DNA of 39,238 bases from a virus (lineage: Duplodnaviria > Heunggongvirae > Uroviricota > Caudoviricetes). Positions 6,365-14,204 of the stretch are shown here, piece after piece (positions within the stretch are counted from its first letter, which is position 1; every line of letters begins with the position of its first letter). The stretch is taken from the IMG/VR virus record IMGVR_UViG_2728369393_000005; one strand, written 5' to 3'. Below the pieces are notes generated by a model that was given only the letters and a program-made list of their open reading frames with translations, did no database searches and was not told the DNA's origin. The position numbers and the translations under genes were made by a program.

Positions 6365-6639
6365 ATGGAGACTGTTTTTGACGCACTGAAAGCAATGGGA
6401 AAAGCCACATCCATAGAACTTGCTGCGCGCGTGAAGAAGTGCTGAACGAACTATGGGAACTGAAAAAGGCTGGTTTTGTTGATAAAAGCGCGTACACCTG
6501 GCGTGTGGCTGATAACAACGTTCAGCAGGAACAGCCAGCGCAGGCAGAACTGCCGGAAGAAACCACCACAATGAGTGAAGTTATGCAGCGCATACTGGCA
6601 TTTTATCAGGGAAATGTTCGATATTTTAGACGTTACTAG
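6365..6639 (+). pseudogene. Small winged-helix-like protein split by a frameshift near 6431..6445
   Basis: ATG 6365 frame ([26 protein letters not shown]-stop) switches to the ORF 6439..6639 frame ([26 protein letters not shown]); the two halves read as one protein with a single-base indel. Confidence 0.4.
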
Positions 6640-7082
6640 ATTAAAGAGCATTAGTTCAGATGTGAATTGACATTGTGTGGCACAGGGTTGGGCTAGCGTG
6701 GGGGTTTGCTTTGTGTAAGAAACGGATGCTCTGCAAATTACTACTAATGCTTAATGTTAGTCTGATCTGCTCCCCGATGATTAATTAATACACCGCTATG
6801 TTAGTAATGTCTGTAGATCGCTGTGTGTTGCATCCATCGGTTGACCCCACAGTCCAAACCAGACTGTCAGCTTTGATTCGATTCTATCTACTCAACCTGT
6901 CAGGTAATGTCTGAGCTAATACACAGAGTACGGCTATCGCGAACTTTAAGCTAGGTATCTGATACGCACCGTTCACTTGGTTGTACTTCTTGCACTGACT
7001 AGCTATCGTGCGCAGTTATTTATAGGTAATCTCCAGTGTATAATTTTCCAACTTATGGGAGATTGTAAAACAGGAGGAATAT

Positions 7083-7925
7083 ATGAGGAAAAAATCGTTT
7101 GGACGTTGCCCGTTTGATTTCGACGAAGATGTAAAAAAAATAGCCGCGATAAATAAATATATCCATGCGAAATTTGAGAGGCATAAAAATAAAATAGATA
7201 ACCTAAAGGGGGTGGAACAAAAATTGATGGTTTTACATTACTTTAATGTACTGAATGAACTTAGTAATCAGGCTATATTTTCTTTGAGTACCGGAGCCTT
7301 TTCAGCATCGGAAGTATTAACTAGAGTTATAATGGAACAGGCTGCCAATCAATTTTATATAGCAATTGATGATGGAAAAAATGCACAAGCATTACTCAAG
7401 GGTAGTAAGAAATTAGTTCATAGTAATGGGAAACGGTGGCTGGAGTGTTTAAAATCCAAAGAAATGACTAATCCAGCAGCAGATGAAAGGATTCGTATCG
7501 GAAAAGAGCTAACTGATATGTTTAATAGATTGTGGCCAAATACACCTGAATATCCTGGAACCAAAAAGCTTTTCGAAGTAATTGGCTGGGAAACACACTA
7601 TCATGCCTATTACGTCCCTCTTTGTGATTCAATACATACATTCTCTGATGATATGGCAAATATAGTATCTCTATATAATGCAATCCAAAGCGATAAAACT
7701 ACTGCTATCGAACTCACTCTTGCAGTTAAACAAGAAAATAAACGGCTGGCAATTTATAATGTCGTAATTGCTATTGGCCTGCGGTGTGAGGCCTTAGTAA
7801 ATGTATTTAACTCTTTAGGTTATCGAGATATTATAACTGAAATGGCGCCAACAATAGATGCAGTCAACCAGATTATAATTCGATATGATGATTTCGAACA
7901 TTCCAGAATTTTTTATTGTCAATAA
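7083..7925 (+). CDS. Hypothetical 280-aa protein with its own promoter and strong RBS; function unknown
   Basis: AGGAGG at 7071..7076 before ATG 7083; TATAAT at 7043..7048; long AT-rich ORF; C-terminal RYDDFEH fits a loose Rx4-6H pattern, speculative. Confidence 0.6.
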   Translation: MRKKSFGRCPFDFDEDVKKIAAINKYIHAKFERHKNKIDNLKGVEQKLMVLHYFNVLNELSNQAIFSLSTGAFSASEVLTRVIMEQAANQFYIAIDDGKNAQALLKGSKKLVHSNGKRWLECLKSKEMTNPAADERIRIGKELTDMFNRLWPNTPEYPGTKKLFEVIGWETHYHAYYVPLCDSIHTFSDDMANIVSLYNAIQSDKTTAIELTLAVKQENKRLAIYNVVIAIGLRCEALVNVFNSLGYRDIITEMAPTIDAVNQIIIRYDDFEHSRIFYCQ

Positions 7926-7999
7926 TTAATTGGCAGAATTCGTACATGCACAACAACTAGTTATAGTTGACCTATTTCGCTCTTGAGAGACAACCATAC

Positions 8000-8551
8000 T
8001 CAAATCTTCCACATTGCAGGAGATTTGAGTATGAATACGTCACCGAGGAACAAAGACAGTATCATAGGCCCAAAAAGACCACTTCAGATATCTCATATCT
8101 GGGGGCTCCAAATCCGGCTTGAACTGGAAGGTAAAACGCGTGATTTAGCTCGGTTTCAAGCAGAGCTACGGTGCTGCAACTGAAAAACTGGCAGTCCTAT
8201 CCAATTTGAGATAACCAAAGGGACAAGAGAAGCTGTTTCTGCATTGATAAAGCTTGGCAATTTACGCAGTAAAGACTACTTGTTCCGATCTCGGGTCGGT
8301 ACTAACCAACACATATCAATCCTGCAATATAACCGAATCTTTCATAGGAGGGAGAAAAGCTTGGTCTCGAAGATTCGCTTTACAGCACACATTCCATGAG
8401 AAGAACAAAACCTTGCCTTGTCTGCAAGAAAACTAAGAATCTCCGGGTGATCCAACTTCCGTTGGGCCATAAGAAAACGGAAAGCACAGTTCGTTATCTG
8501 GGTATAGAAGTTGATGATGCATTAGAGATCTCTGAATCGATCGAAGTCTAA
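8000..8551 (+). pseudogene. Decayed tyrosine recombinase gene (fragments in three frames)
   Basis: Fragments KDYLFRSRVGTNQHIS, ALQHTFHEK and LRVIQLPLGHKKTESTVRYLGIEV-stop (ends 8551) resemble recombinase box II and the C-terminal LGH-x8-Y catalytic tyrosine region, but lie in different frames. Confidence 0.45.
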
Positions 8552-8963
8552 AGCTGTCAGGGCTGCAGCAGCAGCCCTGTGCCAAGAGCGTACCAATATA
8601 TGTCTCAAAAAATTGGGCACAGGTCAATATCAATACCAACAACTCTGATTGTGCTCATGTGATTTACTCCTGTAGAAAACGCAGACAGTAAAAATATTTC
8701 ACTGGCTGCTTCAGACAGGGCGTCCATCATATCATTACATAACAATAGCGGGGCACGATATCTAGACATGCAGCAACGATGGACATAGAATGAGTACAAT
8801 CAAAAGCATGTTTAACTACTTTAATTTAAAAATCTTAGAATCTTAGGTGTAGAGTTCAATACTTAGTTACATACCCTTTTGAAAGCATCACAAATCATAA
8901 CTATGAGCCTGTTAAAGGCATAGGTATTCTTAATTAAGAGCATTTTAATGAGAGAAAAATAAA

Positions 8964-10337
8964 ATGAAAAGACTATATTATACCCATCATGATAGTCGAA
9001 CCTTAAAACTTGCTATAGAAGGTGATGTTTCTGATAATGCGAATATTTTTACAGTAATTGTAGGTAAAAATGGCGTTGGAAAAAGCAGATTGTTATCTCA
9101 GATTGCTAAAGACTGTATTCAAGATGTTCATTTCTTGAAAACTTTTAATCCATTATTTGACAGAGAAATAACACCAAAGTTAATTGCCGTATCTACCAGC
9201 CCATTCGATAAATTCCCTCCAGGGCGTAGGTCATTAAATCACCAAAGGAAAGAAAATAATTATCGCTATGTGGGTATGCGTGGAGAAGGCCCCTTCGGCG
9301 TATCAAATGCCGTATCCCTTTTATCTTCAGCAGCGAGAGGTTGGCTAGAGAAACTTGCTTATTCAGAAAATCCTGCAAATTTACTCGATGTTTTTCATTC
9401 TATTGATTTTGAGCCCCATATAGAGTTTGTATTTAAACCAACTTACAACGGACCGGACACTCCTGACTATAACTTCATTGGTGTATATTCAGATGAGATA
9501 TTAACGGAAGTTAAGGAGTTATATTTAAAATACAATATAAAAATTGACAGGAAGAATATTGAGAGTCTCTTAAAGTTAAACTCCGAATCACGTCATGATA
9601 TTTACGAAGCACTGGTTGAAATTAATCGATTTGAACCTGAACGTAGGGCTGTAACCTTGTCAGTCGATTTTACCAATGGTGAAACATTGGTTGGCTCGAC
9701 TTATGCGAATAATTATTTTTCTAGATCAATTCTTAAACTTATGAACGCTGGCTTCATGAGATTGATGGATATGCGACTCATAAAAAAAAGCTATGGTCCC
9801 ATGTCACTTAAACGTGCGAGCTCGGGAGAACAATGTTTATTAGTGATGTTGCTTGGAATTGCAGGGCATATAACTGATGGTTCTATAATACTAATTGATG
9901 AACCGGAAATAAGCTTGCATCCTCGATGGCAGGAAGAGTTTATCATTATGTTAACAAAAGCATTTTTAACTTACTCAGGTTGTCAATTCATAATTGCAAC
10001 TCATTCACCACAAATAATATCCAATTTGCCGAATAAAGGTTGTTATATAACATCTTTGTCGAAAAGTTATCTTTATAAAGCAAAATACTTTAGCAACCGG
10101 TCTGCAGACTATCAACTTGCGGAACTATTTGATGCCCCTGGCATTATGAATGAATACATTGCCAGATTAGCTTTCAATTTACTTTCAAAAGTTAAGACTG
10201 CTAAGTTAGTAACAGATGATAATTGGCGTGAATTAAAACAACTCCAGCTTCTCCTTGAAAACGTTAATAGTAATGACCCTATTAATGAACTCGTAAATTC
10301 CGTATCTCAGGTGTGTGAAATTTATGCCAAAAATTAA
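8964..10337 (+). CDS. ABC-type (AAA_21/SMC-like) ATPase, 457 aa; PtuA-like candidate
   Basis: Walker A VGKNGVGKSRLL, signature-like SSGEQ, Walker B IILIDEPEISLHP, H-loop IIATHSP; stop overlaps the start of the downstream HNH gene. Confidence 0.75.
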   Translation: MKRLYYTHHDSRTLKLAIEGDVSDNANIFTVIVGKNGVGKSRLLSQIAKDCIQDVHFLKTFNPLFDREITPKLIAVSTSPFDKFPPGRRSLNHQRKENNYRYVGMRGEGPFGVSNAVSLLSSAARGWLEKLAYSENPANLLDVFHSIDFEPHIEFVFKPTYNGPDTPDYNFIGVYSDEILTEVKELYLKYNIKIDRKNIESLLKLNSESRHDIYEALVEINRFEPERRAVTLSVDFTNGETLVGSTYANNYFSRSILKLMNAGFMRLMDMRLIKKSYGPMSLKRASSGEQCLLVMLLGIAGHITDGSIILIDEPEISLHPRWQEEFIIMLTKAFLTYSGCQFIIATHSPQIISNLPNKGCYITSLSKSYLYKAKYFSNRSADYQLAELFDAPGIMNEYIARLAFNLLSKVKTAKLVTDDNWRELKQLQLLLENVNSNDPINELVNSVSQVCEIYAKN

Positions 10338-10959
10338 AAATCCAATTAGATTCAGCGCAGAGTCATTAGATATTATTGAGAAAAAATTGTCTTCTCCAGA
10401 TTTTAAGCATACCAACTGGGGAGATGATGATTTGCAAGTTCTCCGTGCAGAAATTAGAAATCATTACAGAGAAGAACAAAAGCTAGAATGTGTATATTGT
10501 CATGAGCCTATTGGGGTAAGAGCTGCACAAGCTGCTCCTATAGAGCATATTGTGCCAAAATCTCAATATCTATGTTTTATTTTTGAACCTAAGAATCTAT
10601 GTGTAGTATGTCCTGACTGCAATGAATTCAAAGGTAAAAATGAAGTGTTATTTGAACCCGTAATAAATGGGGGGCGGCGCAAAAACTATCCAACTGCATC
10701 TGCATCATTTCGCATCGTTCATCCACATATAGATGATTATGAGATGCATATTATAAAAGCAAATCGTGTTTATGTGGACAAAACACCTAAAGGGCACTAT
10801 ACCATTGGAATATGTAAACTAAATAGATTTTTTCATTATTTTGGGATGTGTGATGAATTTGTTAATGATGCAAAAATTGCTGAGGCAAATGAAAATTTTT
10901 TCAAAAAAGGTAGTATTACTACTAATGAATTATTGGATGATGACATTCATTTGATTTAA
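10324..10959 (+). CDS. HNH endonuclease, about 212 aa; PtuB-like candidate
   Basis: CVYCHEP ... EHIVPKS ... CPDCNEFKG gives the CxxC-H ... H ... CxxC HNH zinc-finger pattern; ATG 10324 overlaps the ATPase 3' end by 14 nt (GTG 10315 by 23 nt). Confidence 0.75.
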   Translation: MPKIKNPIRFSAESLDIIEKKLSSPDFKHTNWGDDDLQVLRAEIRNHYREEQKLECVYCHEPIGVRAAQAAPIEHIVPKSQYLCFIFEPKNLCVVCPDCNEFKGKNEVLFEPVINGGRRKNYPTASASFRIVHPHIDDYEMHIIKANRVYVDKTPKGHYTIGICKLNRFFHYFGMCDEFVNDAKIAEANENFFKKGSITTNELLDDDIHLI

Positions 10960-11272
10960 CTATGAATTATTATATTGTAAAGTAATCAGGTAAGATATGT
11001 TAGACAGTGAGACTATTGCCTTACAGAATTCATTATTCTTATGGATCGCCTTTCTGACTGATTTCATATTGGCGGGGTAACGGGAGTTAAGTAGAATGGC
11101 TGCGGGTGCTTGAGGCTATCTGTCTCAGGCATGAACACCAAAGGCAGATAGAGAAAAGCCCCAGTTAACATTACGCGTCCTGCAAGACGCTTAACATTAA
11201 TCTGAGGCCAATTTCATGCTAGACACATGTAGGTTAGCCTCTTACGTGCCGGAAGGCAAGGAGAAGCAGGCT

Positions 11273-11428
11273 ATGAAGCAGCAAAAGGCGATGTTAATCG
11301 CCCTGATCGTCATCTGTTTAACCGTCATAGTGACGACACTGGTAACGAGGAAAGACCTCTGCGAGGTACGAATCCGAACCGGCCAGACGGAGGTCGCTGT
11401 CTTCACAGCTTACGAACCTGAGGAGTAA
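11273..11428 (+). CDS. hokD: Hok/Gef-family type I toxin (51 aa)
   Basis: MKQQKAMLIALIVICLTVIVTTLVTRKDLCEVRIRTGQTEVAVFTAYEPEE matches Hok-family (HokD/RelF-like) sequence from memory; hairpin and intrinsic terminator follow. Confidence 0.65.
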   Translation: MKQQKAMLIALIVICLTVIVTTLVTRKDLCEVRIRTGQTEVAVFTAYEPEE

Positions 11429-11498
11429 GAGACCCGGCGAGGGAGAAATCCCTCGCCACCTCTGATGTGGCAGGCATCCTCAACGCACCCGCACTTAA

Positions 11499-11517
11499 CC
11501 CGCTTCGGCGGGTTTTT
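11499..11517 (+). terminator. Intrinsic terminator downstream of hok (CCCGC-TTCG-GCGGG + T-run)
   Basis: Stem-loop followed by TTTTTGTT read directly. Confidence 0.4.
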
Positions 11518-11785
11518 GTTTTTATTTTCAACGCGTTTGAAGTTCTGGACGGCGCCGGAATAGAATCAAAAATACTTAAGTAGCGCGCAGGGATAAGAGG
11601 GATGGTCCCTTAAAGGGGAGAGCTAATTATCCGGAAGGATTCTGATGATGAACATCGAAGAACTGCGTAAAATTTTTTGTGAAGATGGCCTCTATGCTGT
11701 GTGCGTTGAAAATGGAAATCTTGTTAGTCATTACCGCATTATGTGTTTGCGAAAGGTAAGCGTCAACGGAGCACCGTATTGACGC

Positions 11786-13401
11786 TTATTTATTGGTGAG
11801 TACTACGTTCCATGGCAGGAGTTCATCAACTCGGTTGGAAGGCCATTCCGGCAGTACGCTCAGGATATGGCGCAGATACGCTTCCGGATCGATACCGTTC
11901 AGACGGCAGGTGCCGATCAGCCCGTACAACAGTGCTCCACGCTCGCCGCCGTGATCGCTGCCAAAGAACATAAACTTTTTCTTTCCGAGACAGACTGCAC
12001 GAAGCGCTCTTTCCGCAGCATTATTATCCGCCTCCGCCAGACCGTCATCACTGTAATAACAGAGGGCATCCCACTGATTCAGTACATAGCTGAACGCTTC
12101 GCCCAGTCTGGATTTTTTCGACAGCGTACCATTCTTCTCCACCATCCATTCATGCAGCGACGTCAGTAACACTTTGCTTCGCTGCTGCCTGACGGCAAGA
12201 CGCTCTGACTCCGGTAATCCCCGTATTTCATCCTCGATGGCGTACAGTTCACTGATTCGCTTCAGGGCTTCTTCTGCCGTCGCACTTTTGCTGCTGATGT
12301 ATACATCGTGGATTTTTCGCCGGGCATGGGCCCAGCACGCAACTTCTGTCAGTGCACCACCTTCACGTTCTGCACTGAACAACCTGTCGTAACCTGTGAA
12401 CGCATCCGCCTGCAGGATACCCCGGAAGGGGCGGAGGTGTTGCTCCGGGTGTTTCCCCTGCCGGTTCGGCGAGTACGCGAACCAGACCGCTGGAGGAGAT
12501 GACGAACCCACATTGCGATCATCCCGGACATACGTCCAGATACGCCCTGTTTTCGCCTTTTTCTGACCCGGTGCCAGTACCTTTACCGGTGTGTCATCAG
12601 TGTGAACCTTGCGGGTGTTCATTACATAACGGTACAGGGCATCATTCACCGGTGTCATTAACTGGCAGCACGCGTCAACCCAGTTGGAGAGTAAGGCCCG
12701 GCTCAGTTCGACACCCTGGCGGGCAAAGATTTCACTCTGACGATACAGTGGCAGATGTTCGCAGTATTTTCCCGTTAACACGCGGGCAAGTAATCCGGGG
12801 CCCCCGCGATACCACGCTCTATCGGGCGGGACGGCGCCGGTGCTTCAACAATACAGTCACATTTTGTACAGGCTTTTTTTACCCGTTCTGTGCGGATCAC
12901 TTTCAGGGCACTGCTCACCAGTTCCAGCTGTTCAGCGCTGACTTCCCCCAGATAATCCAGCTCACCGCCACACTCCGGGCAACAGCTTTCTTCTGGCTCC
13001 AGGCGGTGTATTTCTCGGGGAAGGTGTGCCGGTAACGGACGACGATGGCGCGACTGTCGCAACTGGCGGGGAACCTGAGGATCGTCTTCCCGCCCACTGT
13101 AACGATCGCTGTCCTGTTCACGTTGTTTCAGCAGAGCCTCAGCCAGTTCAACTTCACGACGCAGTTTTTCAGAACGGGTACCGAACAGCATCCGGCGCAG
13201 TTTTTCTATCTGAGCCCGCAGATGTTCTATTTCCCGTTCATCTTCTTCGATCTTTTCTTCGGCACGTGTCAGTGCAGAGCGCAGGAAGGCTTCCGTCTCT
13301 TCAACCAGACTCAGTTGCTGGTCTTTCTGACGGAGGGCTTCAGCCTGCTCAGAGAGCAATCTTTCCAGCTCTGCGATGCGAATGAGGTATTTCTGACTCA
13401 T
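11786..13401 (-). pseudogene. IS66 transposase TnpC, split by a frameshift at a G/C homopolymer (12797..12805)
   Basis: N-terminal fragment 12775..13401 (Cys-rich zinc-finger CCPECG ... CTKCDC) and C-terminal fragment 11786..12781 (GKYCEHLPLYRQ ...) together equal a full-length TnpC. Confidence 0.75.
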
Positions 13402-13431
13402 GACCGTTTTTATAATGCGGTCAGGAGTTTT

Positions 13432-13782
13432 TTACAACATTGTCAGTGAGTTACGGCTGGATGTTTTTGGCTGACGCCAGTCCAGCTTATCGAGGAGCAT
13501 TGCCAGTTGCGAGCGGGTAATGGATACCTTGCCGTCACGTACCGCAGGCCAGATAAACTGGCCTTCCTCCAGGCGTTTGGTGAACAGGCACAGACCATCA
13601 GCATCAGCCCAAAGAATTTTGACGGTGTCACCCCGTCGGCCACGGAAGATAAACAGGTGACCGGAGAAGGGATTATCATTCAGCACATGTTGTACCTGTT
13701 CTCCCAGTCCGTTGAAGGATTTACGCATATCGGTAACGCCGGCAACGAGCCAGATACGGGTACCTGATGGGAGTGAGATCAT
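13432..13782 (-). CDS. IS66 family TnpB (Orf2)
   Basis: 116-aa ORF (MISLPSGTRIWLVAGVTDMRKSFNGL ...) typical of IS66 Orf2, upstream of tnpC. Confidence 0.8.
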   Translation of the reverse strand: MISLPSGTRIWLVAGVTDMRKSFNGLGEQVQHVLNDNPFSGHLFIFRGRRGDTVKILWADADGLCLFTKRLEEGQFIWPAVRDGKVSITRSQLAMLLDKLDWRQPKTSSRNSLTML

Positions 13783-14204
13783 CTTCCCCTCCCGGTCAGT
13801 TCACGGATCAACACCGTGAGCAGCTCTGGCGATGGATTTTCCAGCGTCATGTTACCGTGACGGAATTCCACCTTGCAGGAACTGGCACTGACTCTGGTCT
13901 GAGTGGAAGTGGATAAAGACGGCGCAATGGCCGCCACAGGTTCTTTCTGCTCATCCGGCGTTATTTCTACAGGTAATAATTCAACGCCAGTGTCAGAAGA
14001 GGTCGTTACCGGAAGACGCCGCGAAACACGCCCTTCGTTCTGCCAGAGCCTGAGCCATTTGAAAATAACATTATCATTGACGCCATTTTCACGTGCAATC
14101 TGTGCAACACAAGCTCCAGGTTGTGATGCCAGTTCCACCATACGAAGTTTGAATTCATTCGAATAGTTTTTACGAGGTTCTTTTCGCCAGTCCTGTAATT
14201 CCAT
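13779..14204 (-). CDS. IS66 family TnpA (Orf1, HTH)
   Basis: 141-aa ORF overlapping tnpB by 4 nt; first gene of the IS66 operon. Confidence 0.75.
   Translation of the reverse strand: MELQDWRKEPRKNYSNEFKLRMVELASQPGACVAQIARENGVNDNVIFKWLRLWQNEGRVSRRLPVTTSSDTGVELLPVEITPDEQKEPVAAIAPSLSTSTQTRVSASSCKVEFRHGNMTLENPSPELLTVLIRELTGRGR

Follow-up and report, generated by a model that had tools for sequence, protein, structure and literature searches.

The 280-aa open reading frame at positions 7083–7925 of the window (the whole stretch of 39,238 nt analyzed here, a Caudoviricetes record of IMG/VR) is the cargo of a mobile cassette of 1.8 kb, and it is independent both of the two-gene Septu system that follows it and of the recombinase gene that travels with it. 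By its sequence the product belongs to DUF5677 (PF18928), a named family of unassigned function. We propose, with a probability of about 40%, that this protein acts on its own against phages, as a prophage-encoded effector of abortive infection or exclusion, a candidate role for which the genomic contexts, the conserved residues and a predicted fold are considered below.

The ORF is real, intact and under moderate purifying selection. It was found exactly as first described, with an ATG start on the + strand, and it is unbroken in all of the copies compared (dS 0.10–0.23, dN/dS 0.20–0.37). It also stands, as had been claimed, at the head of an AT-rich stretch, the GC content being 0.33–0.41 over approximately 6500–11000 and 0.49–0.60 in the flanks. 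The preliminary description had further credited the gene with a strong promoter and ribosome-binding site of its own, placing TATAAT at 7043–7048 and AGGAGG at 7071–7076. Both hexamers are present, but at the positions listed in Table 1, and the AGGAGG-N5-ATG pattern occurs once in the window for an expected 0.39. The strong promoter is not supported, because there is no usable −35 element: the hexamers found 16–18 nt 5' of TATAAT (TATTTA, TTATTT and GTTATT) agree with TTGACA at one or two of six positions. The TGn of an extended −10 element is absent at this TATAAT, the promoter scan of the window did not report the site, and the hexamer is common in the window, with 25 occurrences, 7 of them within 7039–7879.

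Table 1. Positions in the window of the cassette, its expression signals and the neighboring Septu genes.
Feature	Position	Strand	Remarks
Conserved non-coding leader of the cassette	6762–7082	+	~89% homology by blastn, same left edge
TATAAT, possible −10 element	7039–7044	+	Kept in cassette copies; without a matching −35
Shine-Dalgarno AGGAGG	7072–7077	+	5 nt before the ATG of the DUF5677 ORF
DUF5677 ORF	7083–7925	+	ATG start, 280 aa
Inverted repeat	7995–8033	+	13 + 13 bp, perfect, 13-nt loop; spans recombinase Shine-Dalgarno (GGAG) and ATG
Pseudogene of a small Xer-like tyrosine recombinase	8031–8551	+	Second cassette gene; RefSeq 'frameshifted; internal stop'
Promoter-like sites 5' of Septu	8763–8791, 8812–8841		Promoter scan
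ptuA (AAA ATPase)	8964–10337	+	PADLOC PtuA, E 1e-165
ptuB (HNH endonuclease)	10324–10959	+	PADLOC PtuB, E 1e-83

The protein had been presented as an orphan that could be placed in no family, which does not hold since it is a DUF5677 member. It scores 37.5 bits against the Pfam profile (gathering score 27.1, E 3.3e-9), its residues 49–195 covering profile positions 3–159 of 166; it aligns end to end with phrog_4167 (E 1e-176), and the RefSeq name of the product is 'DUF5677 domain-containing protein'. With the same length and the same conserved motifs, it is a direct member of both DUF5677 and phrog_4167. An exhaustive phmmer search of 1.84 billion cluster representatives retrieved only 53 relatives at E ≤ 1e-3, a small family whose full-length members have a single domain and measure about 260–330 aa. 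Conservation was read from a family alignment of 30 sequences, all of which match DUF5677 in Pfam and whose full-length members measure 272–330 aa; a second alignment comprises 19 sequences. Six residues are invariant among the 30 members (R81, E85, P158, F164, Y173 and H185) and eight others are conserved in at least 90% of them (E77, L79, N89, W119, A133, S183, D190 and N193). These conserved residues map to two helix faces, E77-R81-E85-N89 and D182-S183-x-H185...D190..N193. The C-terminal RYDDFEH, previously read as a loose Rx4-6H pattern of HEPN type, is not a family motif, since R267 is shared by 7 of the 30 members and H273 by 5; the earlier guess of an abortive-infection gene thus had a wrong basis, the C-terminal Rx4-6H not being conserved. 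An R-x4-H, in the form S-R-V-x-x-E-H-S-x-N, can be read in many DUF5677 relatives, but while R81 is invariant, position 86 is variable: it is H in 10/30 members of the first alignment and 14/19 of the second, and Q, N, M, T or other residues elsewhere. The subfamily of the 280-aa protein differs from the rest of DUF5677 in having Q instead of H at position 86 and Y instead of H at position 268.

The AlphaFold2 model built on the 19-sequence alignment has ten helices (pLDDT 85.4, pTM 0.82), with its lowest pLDDT, 57–65, over residues 181–210, where the second conserved motif lies. On the basis of this model we call the predicted fold HEPN-like, and the protein is not filed as a HEPN member. The Foldseek search that the preliminary description had put forward as a check came back empty, with nothing below E 0.1 in PDB and BFVD. 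None of the 30 members matches a HEPN family of Pfam even at E ≤ 5, DUF5677 being the sole match, and neither the single protein nor the family profile found anything beyond noise in PDB, where aspartate aminotransferase (E 0.04) and glutamate mutase (E 0.6) were rejected. The HEPN superfamily was reportedly described by Anantharaman and colleagues in 2013, and it includes single-gene abortive-infection proteins, such as the lactococcal AbiV, AbiD/AbiF and AbiU2. The DUF5677 members differ from these proteins in several respects: they resemble none of the HEPN families of Pfam in sequence or by profile, the residue after the arginine, usually polar, is a hydrophobic V or I, the catalytic H is replaced by Q in the 280-aa protein, and the second invariant motif, DS-x-H...D..N, has no counterpart in them.

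The 5-kb region around the gene is 100% identical to part of a defective lambdoid prophage of E. coli CFSAN004176, which adjoins a tRNA-Ser gene and mtfA, and 99.9% identical to the same prophage in the EPEC strain E2348/69. In the window, the genes for a repressor, a cro-like protein, YdaT, a DnaT-like replication protein and a lambda-P-like protein are followed by a truncated DUF1627 gene, the DUF5677 ORF, the frameshifted tyrosine recombinase, the AAA ATPase and the HNH endonuclease, and then by hokD/sok, a truncated rem gene and ISEc23, which abuts the capsid gene. The prophage of the window is defective. The DUF1627 gene (~6366–6568) is truncated at the start of the AT-rich islet, and rem (~11645–11773) is truncated. 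ISEc23, an IS66-family element with tnpA, tnpB and a transposase gene (~11786–14204), directly abuts the major capsid gene, so that the prophage lacks its late regulatory, lysis and terminase regions. Frameshifts also affect the integrase and portal genes in the reference genome. Just 3' of Septu, the sok antisense RNA (11104–11278; Rfam RF01794, 117 bits) and the hokD toxin gene (11273–11428) are followed by a weak isrK-like match at 11437–11518, which at 25.7 bits is below the threshold.

The DUF5677 gene is found in 57 of 5,426 complete E. coli genomes (about 1%), including EPEC E2348/69, the ExPEC strains S88 and IHE3034 and the type strain of the species, ATCC 11775. In 19 of these 57 genomes the allele is at least 99% identical to that of the window and lies in the lambdoid context with Septu; the 38 others have an allele about 90% identical, without this Septu. 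Septu is an established two-gene system, and the ATPase-HNH pair, immediate 3' neighbor of the DUF5677 gene in the window, is a complete type-I two-gene Septu. The preliminary description had considered the 280-aa protein as a possible partner or sensor of this pair. That it would be a third component, sensor or regulator of Septu is highly improbable. The two do lie on the same strand with no + strand terminator detected between them, and all 19 E. coli genomes with this Septu allele (19/5,426, always in this islet) have the DUF5677 gene upstream; these 19 co-occurrences are, however, not independent because the copies, being at least 99% identical, represent one recent composite lineage. The co-occurrence across genomes that had been proposed as a check was not seen in independent lineages among the 57 E. 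coli genomes: 38 of them carry the gene without this Septu, the P2-like loci inspected (five in complete genomes and six IMG/VR contigs) have no PtuAB, and the PtuAB homologues of 40–50% identity have no DUF5677 within their available flanks. Moreover, a 1-kb spacer containing the dead recombinase gene and promoter-like sites separates the DUF5677 gene from ptuA, the cassette boundary at ~8515–8579 precedes ptuA, and Septu is modeled with two genes in PADLOC. Septu is thus a separate module with a different distribution and different boundaries, of which DUF5677 is not a component. Even if DUF5677 were not a defence gene, the annotation of the islet would still be corrected to that of an ordinary Septu with an independent upstream passenger.

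The limits of the cassette were obtained by blastn. The left edge of the shared sequence falls at window position 6762 in four P2-like prophages (L002, L005, L017 and L020) and in a Tn3-family transposon (L010), the L009 copy keeping only the sequence from 6883 onward, and the right edge falls at about 8515–8579, well 5' of ptuA. These shared edges therefore define a unit of ~1.8 kb composed of a 320-bp leader, the DUF5677 gene and the recombinase gene. This cassette recurs at ~89% identity, without Septu, in the P2-like tail-gene hotspot and in a Tn3-family transposon; this transposon, on a Buttiauxella contig, encodes a 994-aa TnpA and a resolvase and has DUF5677 and the recombinase as passengers. 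The cassette has inserted independently into the lambdoid prophage of the window, immediately behind its replication genes, into the accessory hotspot among the tail genes of P2-like prophages and into the Tn3-family transposon.

Several repeats were examined around these copies. The window contains long inverted repeats at 6996–7030/8734–8768 and 6678–6690/8572–8584, but a model of the cassette as an invertible segment, or as a unit bounded by terminal repeats, is not supported because the flanking repeats differ between contexts and are absent from the Tn3 copy. A second copy of the repeat arm near the recombinase gene was sought in the window, with chance-level matches as the only result. 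In the P2-like prophage of S88, a 2.4-kb insert between the P2 genes G and FI contains DUF5677, the recombinase gene and a gene for a 125-aa hypothetical protein, and is bounded by a 33-nt imperfect inverted repeat (L002:7969–8001 and 10386–10418) whose core is the perfect 15-mer GCAGACTGTCAGATT. A 13/15 copy of this 15-mer lies in the leader at window 6856–6870, and the 33-nt repeat is absent from the ends of the Tn3 and lambdoid copies of the cassette.

The second gene of the cassette encodes, when intact, a recombinase of 194 aa reduced to the catalytic domain (Pfam Phage_integrase, E 4e-17). In the P2-like prophages, the DUF5677 gene is followed by this intact gene and then by that of the 125-aa hypothetical protein on the other strand. 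Compared with the intact S88 copy, the window recombinase has an 82-nt deletion that removes the region of the first catalytic Arg, plus frameshifts, and in three other contigs (L005, L020 and L036) the gene is reduced to a stub of 35 codons. The recombinase has decayed at least twice, and the DUF5677 gene is intact beside these remnants. This observation bears on another explanation, in which DUF5677 would assist the adjacent tyrosine recombinase, for instance in directionality or regulation, and serve the mobility of the cassette. In Enterobacteriaceae, a recombinase gene or its remnant is indeed found 3' of DUF5677 in every copy examined except L009, and the Bacillota DUF5677 ORFs are enriched beside serine recombinases (bioRxiv 10.1101/2025.10.07.681051). 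We nevertheless consider such an accessory role distinctly improbable: purifying selection on DUF5677 persists beside a recombinase pseudogene or a 35-codon stub, its distant homologues have no recombinase neighbor, and the recombinase family, with 7987 clusters, is mostly found without DUF5677, beside many different cargos. The probable hairpin covering the Shine-Dalgarno and ATG of the recombinase gene also argues against its translational coupling with the DUF5677 gene.

The leader of the cassette invites a further explanation, that of a toxin or addiction factor stabilizing the mobile element, with the antitoxin encoded in the leader. The 320-bp leader matches the coding region in conservation, a 38-aa ORF at 6798–6914 keeps its frame and its length in S88, and a hok/sok module lies nearby. 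A toxin of this kind is improbable all the same, since the integron-cassette and solo homologues of DUF5677 have neither a partner nor such a leader, and no adjacent gene or RNA is conserved as a partner across the contexts examined. The 38-aa ORF, without a Shine-Dalgarno sequence and with 4 synonymous and 4 non-synonymous differences from S88, is probably a chance ORF. The leader was likewise rejected as an RNA element, having no Rfam match and no excess of structure (folding z-score 0.09). The readings of DUF5677 as recombinase accessory, as Septu component and as toxin are each contradicted by the distribution data.

The about 90% identical allele of E. coli belongs to P2-like prophages in all five complete-genome loci inspected (S88, ATCC 11775, PCN033, S1-INA-02-B and AST215), and contig L005 is also a P2-like prophage with the DUF5677 gene. 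In these P2-like copies the DUF5677 gene is flanked by the genes for tail-fibre assembly and for the tail sheath, an arrangement shared by six IMG/VR contigs. In P2 itself this slot holds fun/Z. As regards the accessory exclusion genes of P2 (fun/Z, tin and old), the 88%-identical DUF5677 allele occupies the P2 hotspot slot and is likewise a single gene with its own expression signals; it is unrelated to them in sequence and arrives with its own small recombinase. This tail-gene slot has been described as an accessory and defence hotspot (PMC13586616), among the defence hotspots known in P2 and P4 (PMC9122126, PMC13586616).

Beyond the close copies, a distant P2-like phage carries a 37%-identical homologue within its tail-gene hotspot, with the tube gene on one side and the chaperone and tape-measure genes on the other. 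On the IMG/VR contig of this phage (L042), the homologue and a DUF6124 gene adjoin a cluster (6902–9566) comprising a gene for a SLATT_4 effector with two transmembrane segments, a gene for a 348-aa protein of no assigned family and a SMEK-domain gene; this tail-gene hotspot may be an unannotated defence cluster. An 89%-identical copy lies after guaBA and before a gene for a PLD-type nuclease with weak similarity to DrmC/DpdK, and other relatives are located beside ParDE or next to an inovirus prophage. Those of Vibrio parahaemolyticus and Aliidiomarina are integron cassettes of one gene each, with attC repeats on either side, and in Aeromonas, Sulfurimonas, Burkholderia and others they are solo genes between housekeeping genes. 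A scan of genome contigs with the 19-sequence alignment gave only 8 loci. No match to the gene was obtained by tblastn in 50,697 deposited phage genomes, so that it is seen in prophages and IMG/VR contigs and not in sequenced isolates, and the plasmids gave one match, an 8.5-kb E. coli record with the same islet.

No partner gene is conserved across these contexts, and the protein therefore most likely works alone. As regards its activity, we suggest that the product is an all-alpha, soluble protein built on a HEPN-like helical bundle, on which the two conserved polar helix faces (E77-R81-E85-N89 and D182-S183-H185-D190-N193) would form a catalytic or ligand site; upon infection it would target nucleic acid, most likely RNA. 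A defence phenotype, a catalytic role of the conserved residues and this substrate are our inferences. A stand-alone abortive-infection or exclusion role is plausible, being in agreement with a moderately constrained, stand-alone passenger having a dense set of invariant polar residues and a predicted HEPN-like bundle, with its repeated presence in accessory hotspots of phages, among integron cassettes and near genes of defence type, and with the intact state of DUF5677 where the recombinase has decayed (window) or is truncated (L005, L020 and L036). Against the effector weigh the unremarkable neighborhoods of about half of the distant homologues, the absence of a matching PADLOC model and of any HEPN match by sequence, profile or Foldseek, the Q at position 86, the low pLDDT around the second motif and the negative E. 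faecalis result given below.

The main competing explanation keeps the stand-alone mobile cargo and gives it a role other than defence, for example as a metal-binding enzyme with a four-helix bundle, a factor in stress or fitness of the lysogen, or an anti-defence protein from which the carrier element profits. A conserved set of D, E and H residues could bind metal (E77, E85, D182-x-x-H185, E/D189-D190 and, in most members, H268-E269), although neither ferritin-like ExxH pairs nor a Pfam or PDB sequence match to an enzyme family was found. Members of the accompanying recombinase family are also found beside cargo for resistance to arsenic, mercury and antibiotics, so that the cassette context signals mobility rather than defence. 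The only published phage test of DUF5677 that we found concerns a Bacillota ORF assayed in E. faecalis with six phages, which was not among the five protective ORFs (bioRxiv 10.1101/2025.10.07.681051), and this negative result for a homologue also favors a non-defence cargo. In the opposite direction, the contexts of defence type (Septu, SLATT/SMEK, the PLD nuclease and the P2 tail-gene hotspot) speak for the anti-phage effector, and we regard a non-defence cargo as somewhat unlikely.

The sequence itself is already in databases under its DUF name. PADLOC-DB v2 has no family matching the 280-aa protein and no credible match for two distant members, and NCBIfam has nothing for the 280-aa protein. 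What is new here is the structure of the cassette, with the same gene moving between lambda-like phages, P2-like phages and a Tn3-family transposon, the predicted HEPN-like fold, the correct conserved motifs and the separation from Septu. If DUF5677 proteins do defend against phages, a widespread domain would gain a role and the repertoire of prophage hotspots one more single-gene system. A bolder proposal, which we consider unlikely, is that DUF5677 founds a new single-gene anti-phage family, with a HEPN-like bundle and a split R81/H185 catalytic center, riding on a previously undescribed cassette system in which a small (~200 aa), highly conserved tyrosine recombinase would shuttle defence and resistance genes among prophages, ICEs, transposons and chromosomal islands.

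A more original lead than DUF5677 itself may be the small recombinase family. Besides the window pseudogene, it comprises the intact gene at L002:9287–9871 and homologues of 194–203 aa (L054–L081); the 7987 clusters mentioned above were obtained at E ≤ 1e-10, and no recombinase-specific model was found in NCBIfam or PADLOC. Its identity is 72–95% across E. coli, Proteus, Providencia, Pantoea, Idiomarina and Cycloclasticus. Identical recombinases accompany differing cargos, with TIR/ThsB-like genes, an SMC/AAA_15 ATPase or SIR2+HerA in Proteus, a WYL island or an HNH+SEFIR/TIR island in Providencia, and ars, mer, dfr, qac or an integron-integrase gene in SXT/R391-like ICE contexts. At the Proteus loci, homology begins only ~55–60 nt 5' of the recombinase ATG, and the small recombinase may mark a junction of cargo exchange. 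The inverted repeat over its start is probably a hairpin that sequesters the Shine-Dalgarno sequence and blocks translation from read-through transcripts; similar hairpins occur in many transposase genes. The arms at 7995–8007 and 8021–8033 remain palindromic in Proteus and Providencia by two compensatory changes (CATACTC.../...GAGTATG to CATAATT.../...AATTATG), and the marine homologues of the recombinase keep the inner CTCC/GGAG pairing alone.
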